A DNA stretch of 64,000 bases. Origin: a bacterium (GTDB taxonomy: Bacteria > UBA8248). Below are positions 1 to 6,294 of the stretch, piece after piece (positions within the stretch are counted from its first letter, which is position 1; the number at the start of each line of letters is the position of its first letter). The stretch is taken from contig CBDBBI010000010.1 of the NCBI GenBank assembly GCA_965202625.1, forward strand, positions 736,001-800,000. The letters run 5' to 3'. Position numbers and translations under genes: made by a program. The notes under the pieces were generated by a model that saw nothing but the letters and a program-made list of their open reading frames with translations, did no database searches and was not told the origin of the DNA.

Positions 1-639
1 CGGGCACTGCGAGGAATTATAGACCGTCACGTCGCCGCTCGGCGACCATTCGGCGATGGAGACGTGCGCCTCGAAGGAGGCGTGCATCTGGCGCGAGGAG
101 GATGTGGAAATCTCGCTCACGTGGTGCGCCTCGTCGAACATCCGGCCCACCTCGCCAAACTCCATGTGCTTGGTGAAGGCGACGTTGTTCGGGTGCGCCT
201 CGTGGAGCACGGGGGCACCCTCGCGCATCGCCTCAAAGGGGTCGAAGACGGCGGGAAGCTCCTCGTAGTCAACGTCGATGAGGTCGAGTGCCTCCTGCGC
301 GGCGTCCTCGGACGTCGCCACCACGGCCGCCACCGAGTCGCCCACGAAGCGCGCCTTGTCGGTAGCAAGAGGACGCTGATCGTAGCAGACGGGAACGACG
401 CCCCAGACCACGTCGTCAGGCACGTCCCTGGCCGTCATCACGAGTTTGACGCCAGGCAGCCTCTCGGCGCGGCTGACGTCGATGTTCCTGATGCGCGCGT
501 GGGGGATGGGGCTGCCCAGCAATTTTCCATGAAGCATTTTGGGCAACAGAAGGTCGAGAGTGTACATGGCCTTTCCCGTCACTTTTTCCGGTCCATCAAC
601 GCGCGGCACGCTTTTTCCGACATAGGCGAGATCAGTCAT
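1..639 (-). CDS. Xanthine dehydrogenase family molybdopterin-binding subunit (N-terminal part, runs off the left edge; not in the ORF track)
   Basis: Manual translation from ATG at 639 with RBS GAGGAGG: MTDLAYVGKSVPRVDGPEKVTGKAMYTLDL..MLHGKLLGSPIPHARIRNIDVSRAERLPGVK..RFVGDSVAAVVA..LIDVDYEELP, the typical XDH/CoxL/HbaC N-terminus. Confidence 0.92.
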   Translation of the reverse strand, partial: MTDLAYVGKSVPRVDGPEKVTGKAMYTLDLLLPKMLHGKLLGSPIPHARIRNIDVSRAERLPGVKLVMTARDVPDDVVWGVVPVCYDQRPLATDKARFVGDSVAAVVATSEDAAQEALDLIDVDYEELPAVFDPFEAMREGAPVLHEAHPNNVAFTKHMEFGEVGRMFDEAHHVSEISTSSSRQMHASFEAHVSIAEWSPSGDVTVYNSSQCP

Positions 640-962
640 GGAGCCTCCTCTCATGGGCGGCGTCATCAAAAGACACCACGGGTACAGGACGTTTTCTGAA
701 TCCTTCAGTCAAGGCAAAAACATAGAATATGCTATCATAGCTCTTTGCAATCGAGTGGAATTCGACGCAATGGGCGGATTATAACAACCTCACAGACGAA
801 ACAAAACTTCCTAAACGCGCCGTCGAACCTCCGCTCCTCCCGCGCGGCCGCCTTGGCCTTCCAGTTTGCCCAGTTTGCGGCGCACGGTCCGCCGTGCTAG
901 AAAGAGATAATAGATTTATCATTAATTCCTGCCTCCCCAAAATGCGGGATTGGAGCGACGCG

Positions 963-1709
963 ATGCCCATTCGTTTTGATTTTCAGGGCCGAAAGGTCAT
1001 TCTCACGGGCGCGGCGGGCGCCATGGGAAGCCGCATTCTGCGAGGCTACGCGGAAGCCGGCGCCCGGGTTTTCGCCACTGACAAGGAAGGGGCCGCCTTT
1101 GAGGCGATGAGCGGCCCGCCCGATCAATTCTTCAAGTATCCCTGCGACCTGACCGACATGACCGCCGTCCGTGCCACCATGCGCGAGGCGCTCGGGTGGC
1201 TTGGCGGCTGCGACGTGCTCGTCAACGTGGCGGGCTACATGCCGATTCGCCCGCCGCTTACGCTTGTCGAGGACGATTGGAATTCCGTCCTCGCCGTGAA
1301 CCTGCTGGCGCCTTATTTCTGTATTCAGGAAACCATCGACGCGCTGAAAGCCTCCGGTACAGGGCGCATTATCAGCTTCGCCTCCATCGCGGGCAAGATG
1401 GGGGGCATTGGGCCCAACCTCACCTACGCCGCCGCCAAGGCGGGCTTGCTCGCCATGACCTTCAATCTCGCGCGTGAACTCGCCAGGACGGGCGTGACGA
1501 TCAACACCATACAACCGGGCCCGGCCGACACGGGACTTCACTTCGAGTCTCCGCCCGAAATGCTGGCCAACGCCGCGAACGCCCACCCCATGGGCAGGCT
1601 GACGACACCCGAGGACGTGTGGCAGACCGTTTTATTTCTATCGAGTGAGGAAGCCGCGCACATCAACGGAGAGGCGGTGGACGTGAACGGCGGCTTCTGG
1701 ACAGACTAG
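963..1709 (+). CDS. Short-chain dehydrogenase/reductase (FabG-like)
   Basis: TGAAGAMG, VNVAG, YAAAK catalytic motif, VDVNGG end; start ATG chosen after GGAG. Confidence 0.9.
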   Translation: MPIRFDFQGRKVILTGAAGAMGSRILRGYAEAGARVFATDKEGAAFEAMSGPPDQFFKYPCDLTDMTAVRATMREALGWLGGCDVLVNVAGYMPIRPPLTLVEDDWNSVLAVNLLAPYFCIQETIDALKASGTGRIISFASIAGKMGGIGPNLTYAAAKAGLLAMTFNLARELARTGVTINTIQPGPADTGLHFESPPEMLANAANAHPMGRLTTPEDVWQTVLFLSSEEAAHINGEAVDVNGGFWTD

Positions 1710-1728
1710 ACAGAGGAGCGACGCCGCC

Positions 1729-2592
1729 ATGTCGGCAGAAAACCCGAAAGGATATTCGAATCCCGACCTGCTCTGGTCGCCCGCGCAGCTGATGTGCCGC
1801 ATGGACGACCCCAGCCTGCGGATCGTGGACACGCGCCCCGGCGAGCGCTATGCGATGGGGCACATTCCCGGAGCGCGTCACTTCAACGTCTATGGCGTCA
1901 ACTGCGATGATTCGAGCGAGGCGACGCTCAAGAATTTTTTCAGCATGTGGGCATTTCTGTTGGGAAACCGGGGTGTGGGGTTCGAGAACGTCATCGTTTT
2001 CTACGACGACGTCCTCGGCCACACGAGCGCGCGCGGATTCTGGATGCTCGAGCTCTTCGGGCACAAGGACGTCCACGTACTCGACGGCGGCTACAGCGCA
2101 TGGGAGCGGGCGGGCTTCGAGACGACGCGCGACGCCCAGCCGCCCCAGCCCGTCGCCTTCGAGATGGCGTTTGAGCCAGAGCGTCTTGCCACGAGAGAGG
2201 ACGTGGCGCGCGCCATTGAGGATGACAACCACATCCTGCTCGACACCAGATCTCTGGAAGAGTGGGAGGCGAGGCGCGTCCTGGCAAAGCAAGGCGGAAT
2301 CATCCCCGGCGCCGTCTGGCAGGAATGGCTGCGGCACCTGACGCCCGAGGGTGAGATGAAGCCCGCCGATGCGTTGCGGGCGCAATTCGAAGAACTCGGA
2401 ATCACGCCCGACAAAGAGGTGACCGCCTACTGACAGACGGGCTACCGTGCGGCGCACGGTTATCTCGCCTTGCGGCTGCTGGATCATCCAAAGATGCGAA
2501 ACTACATGAGCTCCTGGAAGGAGTGGGGGAATCGGGAGGATACTCCCATCGCGCAGGCCAAGACCCAATCTCAGGGCGAACAGCGAGAATGA
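1729..2592 (+). CDS. Two-domain rhodanese/sulfurtransferase (TST/MST, SseA-like), probable selenoprotein with Sec at codon 235
   Basis: GHIPGA, LDGG, LLDTRS..E and GIIPGA motifs; in-frame TGA at 2431-2433 inside the active-site loop Y-[TGA]-QTGYRAAH; frame continues LALRLLDHPKMRNYMSSWKEWG to TGA at 2590-2592. Confidence 0.88.
2444..2460 (+). promoter_or_regulatory. Candidate bacterial SECIS hairpin
   Basis: ACCGTGC-GGC-GCACGGT perfect 7-bp stem, G-initiated loop 17 nt after the UGA. Confidence 0.7.
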
Positions 2593-2745: not shown

Positions 2746-3762
2746 ATGAAGATGAATTTCGCTCGCATCATCCTCGCCCTCGGCGTCGCCTGCGGCGTTT
2801 CGGCAGCGAATCTCGCGTCGGCGGCACCCACCCTTCGCCTCGGCGCGGCCAGCAACACCGGCGGTCTCATCGTATTCGTCGGCGTCGATAAAGGGTTTTT
2901 TGCGAAAAACGGACTGGACGCGAAAGTCGTCGTGCGCAACACCGGCGCCCAGCTCACCAAATCCCTCAAGGCGGGGCAGATTGATTTCGCCCCCGCCGCG
3001 TTCACCAACCTGCCGGCGGCGCTCGAGCGCGGCATCAAGGTGCGGGGCGTCGTGGGCTACGTCGGCGGTTCTTACAAGAAATCCACGACCGATGAGATGG
3101 TGGGCATCGCCGTGCGCCCTGAAAGCGGCATCAAAACCATCGCGGACCTCAAGGGCAAAAAAATCGGCTCCACCTTCGGCTCTACCGGCGACCTCTACCT
3201 CCGCACCCTTCTGAACAAAAACGGCATCGGCGCAGGCGGCGTGCGCCGCATCAACGTGCGCCCACCGAGCATCGTCTCCCTGTTCGACTCCGGAGGCGTG
3301 GACGCCATGGTGGCGTGGGAACCCTACCTCACCCGCATGACCGACAAGGTGAAGGGCGCCTCTCTCGTGTCGCGCGGCGGCGATTACGTCTGCTTCTGCG
3401 CAGGAATGCACGGCGTGCCGGAGCGCGTGTATAAAGATAGGAAAGCGACGCAGGCGTTCGTCAACGGAATGTCCGAGGCCGCCGCCTACGTGCGGGACGC
3501 CAAGAACCGGGAAGAAGTGTCCAAAATCGGCGCTCGCTACGTTCGAGGCATGGACGCCTCCCTCATCAAGCGCACCATCAAGTGGTGGACCTATGACCCG
3601 CGCCTGGGCGAGAATACGCTGAAGGCCTTCAATTTTTCGGTAAAACAGCTTATCGCCCAGAAGAAAATGAAGCGGCCATACGACCCCAAAAAATACTTCG
3701 ACTTCCAGTTTATCAACCGGACGATAAAAGAGCATCCGGAGTGGTTCAAGGATCTGAACTAG
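2746..3762 (+). CDS. ABC transporter substrate-binding protein (NitT/TauT, SsuA/NMT1-like)
   Basis: Signal peptide, KGFFAKNGLD, IKTIADLKGKKIG, DAMVAWEPY; RBS GGAGG. Confidence 0.9.
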   Translation: MKMNFARIILALGVACGVSAANLASAAPTLRLGAASNTGGLIVFVGVDKGFFAKNGLDAKVVVRNTGAQLTKSLKAGQIDFAPAAFTNLPAALERGIKVRGVVGYVGGSYKKSTTDEMVGIAVRPESGIKTIADLKGKKIGSTFGSTGDLYLRTLLNKNGIGAGGVRRINVRPPSIVSLFDSGGVDAMVAWEPYLTRMTDKVKGASLVSRGGDYVCFCAGMHGVPERVYKDRKATQAFVNGMSEAAAYVRDAKNREEVSKIGARYVRGMDASLIKRTIKWWTYDPRLGENTLKAFNFSVKQLIAQKKMKRPYDPKKYFDFQFINRTIKEHPEWFKDLN

Positions 3763-3837
3763 CCGCGCGCGCCTTCAACATCCGCGCCCTGATCGTCGTC
3801 GGGGCGCGGATTGCGCTTTGAAAGGAAACGGAAAAAA

Positions 3838-4626
3838 ATGCCGTCCAAACTGGTCGTCCATGGGCTGTCGCACCGCTATCCGGATGAATACACGGGAGAG
3901 GACGTTCACGCTCTTGACCAGGTGAGCCTCGCCGTGGAGGACGGCGAGTTCTCCGCCGTCGTCGGCCCGAGCGGCTGCGGAAAGACCACGCTGCTCAACA
4001 TCCTCGCCGGCCTTCTTCCCCACACAGAGGGCAGCGTTCAGGTTGACGGCAAGGAGGTTCAGGGACCGGGGCCGGACCGGGGGGTGGTCTTTCAGGAGCA
4101 CGCGATTCTTCCCTGGCGCTCCGTCGCGAGAAACATCGGCCACGGCCTCGAGATTCAGGGCGTCCCCAAGGAGGAGAGAGCGAAAAGAGTTCAGGAATTC
4201 ATTGACCTGGTCGGCTTGTCGGGCTTTGAGGACCGTTATCCCCACGAGCTCTCAGGCGGCATGAAGCAGCGCTGCGCGCTCGCGCGCACGCTGTGCGCCA
4301 ACCCCGTCGTGATGCTGATGGACGAACCCTTCGCCGCAGTGGACGCGCAGACGAGAATCACTCTGCAAGAAGAGTTGAACCGCATCGCCATCGCGACGGG
4401 GAAAACCATCCTTTTCATCACCCACAACGTGGATGAAGCCGCGTTTCTGGGAGATCGCTGCTTCATCTTCTCGCGCCGCCCGGGAAGGCTGAAGGCCACC
4501 GTGAAAATCGAGATTCCGCGCGAGAAACGCATTTGGAAGAATTTGCTCTCCGAGAGGGACTACACCGAACCGCGCGATGAAATTCTGCGCCTCGTGCGCG
4601 AGGAGGTCTCTGATGAGGAGGAGTAG
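3838..4626 (+). CDS. ABC transporter ATP-binding protein (NitT/TauT)
   Basis: GPSGCGKT Walker A, LSGGMKQ signature, LMDEPF Walker B. Confidence 0.95.
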   Translation: MPSKLVVHGLSHRYPDEYTGEDVHALDQVSLAVEDGEFSAVVGPSGCGKTTLLNILAGLLPHTEGSVQVDGKEVQGPGPDRGVVFQEHAILPWRSVARNIGHGLEIQGVPKEERAKRVQEFIDLVGLSGFEDRYPHELSGGMKQRCALARTLCANPVVMLMDEPFAAVDAQTRITLQEELNRIAIATGKTILFITHNVDEAAFLGDRCFIFSRRPGRLKATVKIEIPREKRIWKNLLSERDYTEPRDEILRLVREEVSDEEE

Positions 4627-5437
4627 GGAGGCGACTCCTCGGAAAAAACCACGCTCGATGCGGTGGAGGAGGTTCACCAAAGAAGGCGGCGTCGAACTGC
4701 TGCTCCTCATTACGGGCATTTTCCTCCTTTGGTCCCTCATCTCGCAGATCATCCCCAACCCGAGCCGCTACCTCCCCTCGCCCGTTTCCGTCGTCCTATC
4801 TTCCTACGACGTCATCTGGAAAGGTCTCCTGCCCAACTATATCGGGCAAACTCTTTGGCGTCTCCTCATCGGCAGCGCCATCGGCCTCCTGCTGGGCATT
4901 CCGTTTGGAATCGCTCTTGGTCTCAATCGCACGGTATCGGACATGTTCTACCCCATCATGAATTTCTTCCAGTCCATATCGGGCATCGCCATACTACCCA
5001 TCATCGTCGTCTGGTGGGGCAACAGCGAAAAGACGGTGTTCGCCGTCATCCTCTACACCTGTTTCTTCCCGATCACCTTCAACGTCCTGACGGGCGTGCG
5101 CAGCACCCCGATGATACTGGTGAACGCCCTGCGCACTCTGGGGGCCTCGCGTCTGCGAATCGTGAAGGACGTCCTCATTCCAAGCGCCATGCCCCACATC
5201 GCGACCGGGGCGAGGCTGGGCATCGGCTACGCCTGGCGCGCGGTCATCGCAGGCGAGATGCTCGCCGGCAGACGCGGCCTGGGGTGGATGATCTTCACCG
5301 CGCAGGACGCAGACCTCACCGCTCAGGTGATCCTCGGCATGGTGATGATTGGCGCCATCTGGATCATGATCGACCGCTTCGCCCTCCGCCCCATCGAGGC
5401 AGACACAATTCAGCGCTGGGGACTCGTGCAGCGATGA
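4613..5437 (+). CDS. ABC transporter permease (NitT/TauT)
   Basis: Hydrophobic helices, YLPSP, EAA-like loop ALRTLGAS, IAGEM. Confidence 0.92.
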   Translation: MRRSREATPRKKPRSMRWRRFTKEGGVELLLLITGIFLLWSLISQIIPNPSRYLPSPVSVVLSSYDVIWKGLLPNYIGQTLWRLLIGSAIGLLLGIPFGIALGLNRTVSDMFYPIMNFFQSISGIAILPIIVVWWGNSEKTVFAVILYTCFFPITFNVLTGVRSTPMILVNALRTLGASRLRIVKDVLIPSAMPHIATGARLGIGYAWRAVIAGEMLAGRRGLGWMIFTAQDADLTAQVILGMVMIGAIWIMIDRFALRPIEADTIQRWGLVQR

Positions 5438-6294
5438 GCGCCCTCCAGACGGCGACCATCGCCCTGCAAAAGCGCTTTGGCCGCCAAAGACTGCGAAAGA
5501 TCATGCTGGGCGCTGTCCCCTTCGTCTCCCTGCTCGCTTTGTGGCAGATGAACGCCGTCCTCGAATGGCTTCCGCCGGTATTCATTCCGCCTATCGCATC
5601 CATCTGGGAGGCGATATATACGCTCTCGGAGGGCTGCTCCGGCGTCGGCGGGGCACTCAGCATGCAGTATGAATGTCTCTTCACCAACCATATATTTTCA
5701 AGCCTGGGCCGCGTGGGGCTCAGCCTCCTCATCGGCATTCCTTTCGGGATCGCACTTGGCGTGCTGGCGGGCATGAGCCGCCGTTTTGCCCACGCCCTCG
5801 AGCCCATCGGCGTATTCGCTAATGCCATATCAGGCATCGCCTGGGTGCCCCTAGCCATCGTCTGGTTTGGAACCGGCTGGCTCACGACGCTTTTCATCCT
5901 GCTGAACACCGTCTTCTGGCTCGTATTCTTCAACACGCTTCTGGGCGTTCGGGGCGTGCCCCGGGTATATGAAAACTCCGTCATGACGCTCGGTGGCGGC
6001 AGGTGGGCCATCATCTCTCAGGTATATATTCCGGGCGCGCTTCCCAGCATCGTCACCGGAGTGCGCATGAGCATGGGGTTTGGATGGCGCGCGCTCATCG
6101 CTGCGGAAATGATAGGCGGCGACAGCGGCCTGGGCTTCATGATCTTCGTCTCCGCGGCTGAATACAAAATTGAGGAGGTGTTCCTGGGCGTTCTCATCAT
6201 CGCCGTCATCTGGATGATCACCGACAGACTGCTTCTCATTCCCCTGGAGAGATGGACCATCCAGAGATGGGGCATGGTATGGAGACCGTCCTAG
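5434..6294 (+). CDS. ABC transporter permease (NitT/TauT)
   Basis: ATGA overlap with the previous gene; TM helices, WRALIAAEMIGGDSGLG. Confidence 0.92.
   Translation: MSALQTATIALQKRFGRQRLRKIMLGAVPFVSLLALWQMNAVLEWLPPVFIPPIASIWEAIYTLSEGCSGVGGALSMQYECLFTNHIFSSLGRVGLSLLIGIPFGIALGVLAGMSRRFAHALEPIGVFANAISGIAWVPLAIVWFGTGWLTTLFILLNTVFWLVFFNTLLGVRGVPRVYENSVMTLGGGRWAIISQVYIPGALPSIVTGVRMSMGFGWRALIAAEMIGGDSGLGFMIFVSAAEYKIEEVFLGVLIIAVIWMITDRLLLIPLERWTIQRWGMVWRPS

Follow-up and report, generated by a model that had tools for sequence, protein, structure and literature searches.

A predicted two-domain, RhdA-like sulfurtransferase with selenocysteine at its catalytic position

The gene at positions 1729-2592 of the window (the whole stretch of 64,000 nucleotides that was analysed) most probably encodes an RhdA-like sulfurtransferase of two domains and 287 residues, with the UGA at codon 235 decoded as selenocysteine (Sec), a reading to which we give a probability of about 0.9 on the sequence evidence. 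The initial annotation had predicted a Sec-sulfurtransferase of this length, and the prediction is supported by the conservation of the TGA, the selection acting across it, the constraint on the hairpin that follows it and the Sec machinery of the genome. The features of the gene are the following.

1713..1718, plus strand: Shine-Dalgarno-like GAGGAG, 10 nt 5' of the ATG, read from the sequence; probable ribosome-binding site
1729..2592, plus strand: full coding sequence of the predicted Sec-containing two-domain rhodanese, 287 aa plus terminal TGA (from read-through translation, Pfam and orthologs)
1777..2109, plus strand: N-terminal rhodanese domain, residues 17-127 (best Pfam stretch)
2206..2553, plus strand: C-terminal catalytic rhodanese domain, about residues 160-275, limits approximate (from the alignment to 1e0c and 1uar)
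2431..2433, plus strand: UGA codon 235, predicted to be read as Sec at the catalytic position, Y-U-Q-T-G-Y-R (from alignment to Cys and ortholog conservation)
2444..2460, plus strand: SECIS-type hairpin ACCGTGC-GGC-GCACGGT, perfect 7-bp stem, loop GGC at 2451-2453
2438..2467, plus strand: possible extension of the SECIS by a lower stem of 4 bp (2438-2441 paired to 2464-2467), weak, from the minimum free energy (MFE) fold of 2431-2472
2590..2592, plus strand: genuine terminal stop TGA (the terminal stop varies among orthologs)

From the ATG at 1729, the uninterrupted open reading frame covers 1729..2433 and ends ...KEVTAY, followed by the TGA at 2431-2433. When this TGA is read through, 52 further codons (QTGYRAAHGYLALRLLDHPKMRNYMSSWKEWGNREDTPIAQAKTQSQGEQRE) lead to the TGA at 2590-2592 and bring the total to 287 aa. 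The same frame is common to 28 orthologs in other genomes and is unbroken in all 29 genes. The initial annotation had described the stop after KEVTAY, the 52-codon extension and the perfect hairpin, and all of its sequence statements are correct; it had also expected standard annotation to cut the gene short, and the NCBI records of the orthologs are indeed 234 aa long, under the names 'sulfurtransferase' or 'rhodanese-like domain-containing protein'. The C-terminal tail of the window protein (...KTQSQGEQRE, 2563-2589) is 6-10 residues longer than that of the orthologs (277-281 aa).

The product matches the Pfam family Rhodanese (PF00581) in two stretches, with 109.9 bits against a cut-off of 22.2 (E 9.5e-32). 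Its best relative of solved structure is 1e0c (E 1.6e-45; query residues 13-274 on chain residues 8-269), followed by 1uar, 1urh (SseA) and several thiosulfate sulfurtransferases, and the two-domain proteins 1e0c, 1uar and 1urh are aligned end to end. Residue 235 falls on the catalytic Cys of these enzymes (HCQTHHRS in 1e0c, YCRIAERS in 1uar), and ten of ten full-length homologs aligned have Cys in this column; the structural alignment and the Cys homologs thus agree with the earlier placement of the TGA in the active-site loop at the catalytic Cys. Sec235 would head the six-residue active-site loop U-Q-T-G-Y-R of the C-terminal domain, and the motif U-x-x-G is present as U-Q-T-G at residues 235-238, within the PF00581 domain. 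The fold and catalytic architecture predicted for the product of 1729-2592 are clear from these comparisons. Since the C-terminal domain spans the TGA, a 234-aa product would be without the active-site loop and the last ~40 residues of that domain. No equivalog cut-off of NCBIfam was reached: the top model, for 3-mercaptopyruvate sulfurtransferase (SseA, NF008557), scored 125.7 bits against a cut-off of 250, and assignment to that equivalog was rejected, as was membership of rhodanese_LYCAU (NF041203, CxU; 28.6 bits against 115) and of TsoB (NF045694; 15.8 bits against 805).

Of 41 genomes searched in six frames, one of them being the window's, 36 gave a match. Each of the other 22 genomes in the genus has an ortholog, with 78-86% identity, and the TGA lies within the match in 21 of these 22; in the remaining one the contig stops at residue 198, short of the site. 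Outside the genus, one genome of the same family has a 71% identical ortholog carrying the TGA, and internal stops are missing from the more distant matches (63% identity, and below 50%). Scanning of species-representative genomes gave 25 loci, the informative titles of which were Nitrospinota, Nitrospinae, Nitrospinaceae or Candidatus Tectomicrobia. Direct reading of the site was possible for 28 unique coding sequences plus a gene from one more genome, which makes 29 genes, the window's included. All 29 carry TGA, and not TGC or TGT, in the context ...TAY-U-QTGYRAAHG..., at 69-100% amino-acid identity. Because the TGA is conserved across 29 independent assemblies, a sequencing error is excluded.

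Two genomes deserve a separate remark. In one of the same genus (G004), an 81% match to residues 65-284 (C3:37068-37727) contains two TGA and one TAA, residues 1-77 being matched by another piece with 66% identity (C3:37690-37920); this is apparently a broken second copy. In one of the same family (G024), the full-length homolog is a Cys form (63% identity, L067), and a TGA occurs in a fragment at a contig end (C355:1-225) with 53% identity to residues 207-281, so that this genome may carry both Sec and Cys forms.

The protein database search returned 1,615 matches at E <= 0.001 from 3,666 candidates. Among the 120 of these that were listed, 94 are full-length (262-436 aa) and have Cys at the column in 94 of 94 cases; 25 others, the window's included, are 234-aa calls that end exactly at ...TAY, and one is a 209-aa partial sequence. 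A quick IQ-TREE analysis of 119 rows, built from only the columns before the active site and with P0002 and P0116 left out, placed the 25 Sec rows on one side of a branch with an SH-aLRT of 100, and in the midpoint-rooted tree they lie among the 94 Cys rows.

What is inserted at UGA235 has to be considered before function. The rival reading that survives best is that the codon is read through as Cys or Trp by near-cognate suppression, or as Cys carried on tRNA-Sec under selenium limitation, so that the enzyme would be an ordinary Cys rhodanese. Sequence alone leaves the chemical identity of residue 235 unfixed, Cys is used by all non-TGA homologs aligned, and there are other systems in which Sec codons can receive Cys. 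We nonetheless consider this reading quite improbable, because the TGA has been kept over a dS of ~0.7-1.2, which would be senseless if TGC or TGT were equally good, and because a conserved hairpin of the SECIS model, missing from the Cys homologs, and a full selA/selB/selC/selD set in the genome both speak for Sec. The predicted insertion of Sec at UGA235 is strongly supported on these comparative grounds.

The hairpin at 2444-2460 starts 10 nt past the UGA, and 17 nt separate the UGA from the loop. Its folding energy is -9.7 kcal/mol for the 17-nt element, and the MFE of 2431-2472 is -14.9 kcal/mol. A 2026 review gives the bacterial SECIS (bSECIS) constraints as a loop of 3-9 nt, an upper stem of 4-16 bp and a G in the first two loop positions (PMC13188914), with a distance of 16-37 nt from the UGA and an MFE of <= -7.5 kcal/mol (PMC13188914, Fig. 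2 legend); with a 3-nt loop GGC, 7 bp, 17 nt and -9.7 kcal/mol, the hairpin falls within all of these. Genome-wide, a comparable hairpin (perfect, 7 bp or longer, with its start 8-12 nt past the TGA, a loop of 3-6 nt and a G in the first two loop positions) follows 83 of 94,584 TGA trinucleotides (0.09%). Seven Cys-coding homologs, six from related genomes and one a paralog in the window's genome, are without the hairpin and reach 0 to -2.9 kcal/mol at the corresponding 17 nt. At the stem codons the Sec forms have YRAAHG and the Cys forms YRSAHA or YRSAHT, and it is precisely the codons of the two residues replaced between Sec and Cys forms that complete the stem.

Moreover, synonymous change is suppressed in this segment. 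Over codons +1..+9, which hold the spacer and the stem-loop, dS is ~13-fold below that upstream and ~21-fold below that further downstream. Mean codon entropy is 0.107 at these nine invariant-residue codons versus 0.743 at the other 120 such codons of the gene; in 100,000 random draws of codons for invariant residues, conservation as strong as that of +1..+9 never came up, and the 9-codon sliding windows with the lowest values anywhere in the gene are those on the TGA. The SECIS-like hairpin that the initial annotation had noticed 3' of the TGA is thus borne out by the bSECIS constraints, by the suppression of synonymous change and by its being missing from the Cys homologs.

Other descriptors of the RNA were less informative. 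No covariation was found in the hairpin, where 34 of 45 columns are invariant and the observed scores were reached by 143 of 500 shuffles; covariation cannot be assessed here because the hairpin is nearly invariant. A single change unpairing one stem position occurs in 4 of 20 distinct sequences, and among the same number of distinct sequences the lower-stem pair 9:36 shows one compensatory change and three unpaired cells. The folding energy of this GC-rich sequence is not better than that of shuffles (z = -0.07 for 2425-2500, z = -1.29 for 2431-2472). A scan of 2300-2700 against Rfam, with E up to 10, gave only two chance-level matches to unrelated families, a scan that does not establish whether Rfam holds a general bacterial SECIS model.

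The window's genome (3.09 Mb in 10 contigs, 99.7% complete) has the complete Sec machinery, each match being above its own family cut-off. The tRNA-Sec scored 75.8 bits against a cut-off of 47 and was called tRNA-SeC with anticodon TCA by ARAGORN; selA scored 565 bits; selB, adjoining selA, scored 361 bits over model positions 1-580 of 581 and is full-length; selD scored 333 bits and has one in-frame TGA of its own, in the motif GGUGSK. Three further genes on the same genome, all outside the window, can be compared with the one studied here.

C10:1611050-1612009, minus strand: selD, itself a selenoprotein gene (locus L018), with a bulged hairpin, loop GGA, starting 9 nt past the UGA
C10:2809702-2810526, plus strand: second two-domain rhodanese, a 30% identical paralog, with an in-frame TGA at the catalytic position
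C10:1990809-1991702, minus strand: third rhodanese, a 44% identical paralog, with Cys (LCQGGYRSAH) and without the hairpin

The second rhodanese has the motif Y-U-R-L-S-H-R and a 9-bp hairpin with loop GUC that starts 10 nt past the UGA; the geometry of this hairpin and of that in selD matches the hairpin at 2444-2460. As the third paralog uses Cys, the genome keeps both Sec and Cys versions of this enzyme type. In most genomes of the same genus there are also matches of 26-31% identity with one or more TGA.

A further rival reading holds that the TGA is a true stop, the gene being a pseudogene or encoding a functional 234-residue protein, and the frame downstream a decaying remnant. The length of the public gene calls speaks for it, and a change from TGC or TGT to TGA needs only one base. 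The rates of substitution on both sides of the TGA were estimated by the Nei-Gojobori method from 378 pairs of 28 coding sequences.

232 codons upstream of the TGA: dN 0.106, dS 0.710, dN/dS 0.150
Codons +1..+41: dN 0.086, dS 0.590, dN/dS 0.146
Codons +10..+41: dN 0.113, dS 1.190, dN/dS 0.095
Codons +1..+9: dN 0.000, dS 0.056, dN/dS 0.000

Selection is not relaxed 3' of the TGA: the 41 downstream codons are under purifying selection equal to that upstream (0.146 versus 0.150), and by this comparative measure the region is translated and constrained as protein. None of the 29 genes has a break in the frame, and the internal stop is always TGA, whereas the terminal stop varies (TGA in 8, TAG in 12 and TAA in 6 of 26 orthologous loci). 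This variation among three codons indicates that TGA serves these genomes as a normal stop. If codon 235 did nothing more than terminate translation, it too could change from one stop codon to another, yet no such variation occurs there. There is no conserved restart codon 3' of the TGA, codon +13 (TTG in the window) being one of five different Leu codons in the orthologs, and a 234-aa product would be without its catalytic residue. A true stop is therefore very improbable. Least of all can a changed genetic code with TGA as a sense codon throughout the organism be entertained, as it has the open frame and no other support in its favour, the terminal stop of the gene is TGA in the window and seven other orthologs and TAG or TAA in 18 others, and selA, selB and most homolog matches are free of internal stops.

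With UGA235 read as Sec, translation and catalysis might proceed as follows. As the ribosome reaches UGA235, the 17-nt hairpin 10 nt past it would recruit SelB with Sec-tRNA(Sec), and Sec would be inserted, standing in for the catalytic Cys. By analogy to Cys rhodaneses, the selenolate of Sec235 would take the sulfane sulfur, or possibly selenium, from a donor in a double-displacement reaction, and the enzyme-bound Se-S intermediate would then hand the atom to a thiophilic acceptor. The Se-S intermediate is our extrapolation from those enzymes.

The neighbours of the gene in the window may give some indication of the substrate.

1-669, minus strand: molybdenum hydroxylase large subunit, N-terminal part (Ald_Xan_dh_C and MoCoBD_1), running off the window start
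894..1709, plus strand: short-chain dehydrogenase/reductase (SDR; Pfam adh_short_C2, E 3.2e-46)
2746-3762, plus strand: NMT1/THI5-type ABC binding protein (Pfam NMT1)
3811-4626, plus strand: ABC importer ATPase (Pfam ABC_tran)
4577-5437 and about 5431-6294, plus strand: two ABC permeases (Pfam BPD_transp_1 twice)

The SDR gene ends 19 nt 5' of the rhodanese ATG and is directly upstream in 27 of 27 orthologous loci; the NMT1-type binding protein is found downstream in 17 of 27, within a 1.5-kb flank. This arrangement suggests a putative operon of the SDR, the Sec-rhodanese and the ABC importer. The SDR and the NMT1-type importer as neighbours hint, though only weakly, at organosulfur metabolism.

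A role in selenium trafficking has to be considered as well. According to a review, the Cys enzyme RhdA of Azotobacter vinelandii accepts selenium in vitro, in the form of a perselenide, and the selenium needed to make selenophosphate may come from rhodanese (PMC9369223). The perselenide of RhdA is bound selenium and not a coded Sec such as that predicted here; given that work, a Sec-rhodanese might by analogy take such a role. A more specific proposal is dedicated chalcogen trafficking, in which Sec235 would carry selenium as a Se-Se perselenide toward SelD, or sulfur as Se-S, drawn from a compound that the ABC system takes up and a co-transcribed SDR processes; the enzyme would then be more than a faster sulfurtransferase. 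We regard this as unlikely; if true, the conserved SDR-rhodanese(-ABC) block would be an uncharacterised operon for organosulfur or organoselenium salvage.

Sec-rhodaneses had been predicted before, as the initial annotation rightly remarked. The 2005 study of the Sargasso Sea selenoproteome lists a Sec 'rhodanese-related sulfurtransferase (COG2897)', with three sequences, among 15 new families (PMC1088965), and a predicted SECIS is shown for that family (PMC1088965). Counts of selenoproteins from Olavius symbionts include 'Sulfurtransferase COG2897' (PMC1976440), and the Sec-rhodanese family appears in a 2022 review (PMC9312934). The 2026 review describes rhodanese forms 2 and 4 with the motif UxxG (PMC13188914); its example accession was not found among the members listed for eight ortholog clusters. 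Judged by motif and description, the gene studied here shares with the COG2897/SseA Sec family a rhodanese fold with Sec at the position of the catalytic Cys, the two-domain SseA type, the U-x-x-G motif, widespread Cys homologs and a SECIS-type hairpin with a G in a small apical loop. What sets the present clade apart is the RhdA-like loop UQTGYR and its occurrence in MAGs labelled Nitrospinota or Tectomicrobia. A related MAG ranks among the most selenoprotein-rich bacteria in BSepDB, and a locus on a contig bearing the name of that MAG (L059) holds a 73% identical ortholog with an identical TGA and hairpin.

Among characterised enzymes, RhdA of A. vinelandii (1e0c, 1h4k, 1h4m) has the same two-domain layout, and in the alignment U-Q-T lies opposite its catalytic Cys and the Q-T that comes after it. 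Its loop is CQTHHR, with Cys, as against UQTGYR, with predicted Sec, and an Arg ends both loops. E. coli SseA (NF008557; 1urh) likewise has two rhodanese domains and aligns over its full length, with query residues 39-277 on model positions 40-280. The families NF041203 (rhodanese_LYCAU) and NF045694 (TsoB) resemble the gene here in that their rhodanese domain carries Sec within the active-site loop or close to it, but they have single-domain or fusion architectures and other motifs.

To conclude, the gene at 1729-2592 is a further member of a family predicted in 2005, from a lineage whose wealth of selenoproteins is already on record, and the existence of Sec-rhodaneses is not new. The practical value of the finding lies in annotation, as this gene and its orthologs are deposited as 234-residue stumps without the catalytic residue; metabolic reconstructions of uncultured Nitrospinota/UBA8248-type bacteria will in consequence either overlook a working enzyme or include a defective one. 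The accessible literature on the COG2897 Sec family reports no biochemistry for it, and a U235C comparison would be informative for that reason. The clade offers a clean natural Cys/Sec pair for such work, its 25 Sec rows forming a single group among 94 Cys rows. Within this pair, the two linked changes from YRSAHA to YRAAHG build the SECIS stem, so that a coding sequence appears to have been reshaped to host a recoding signal.
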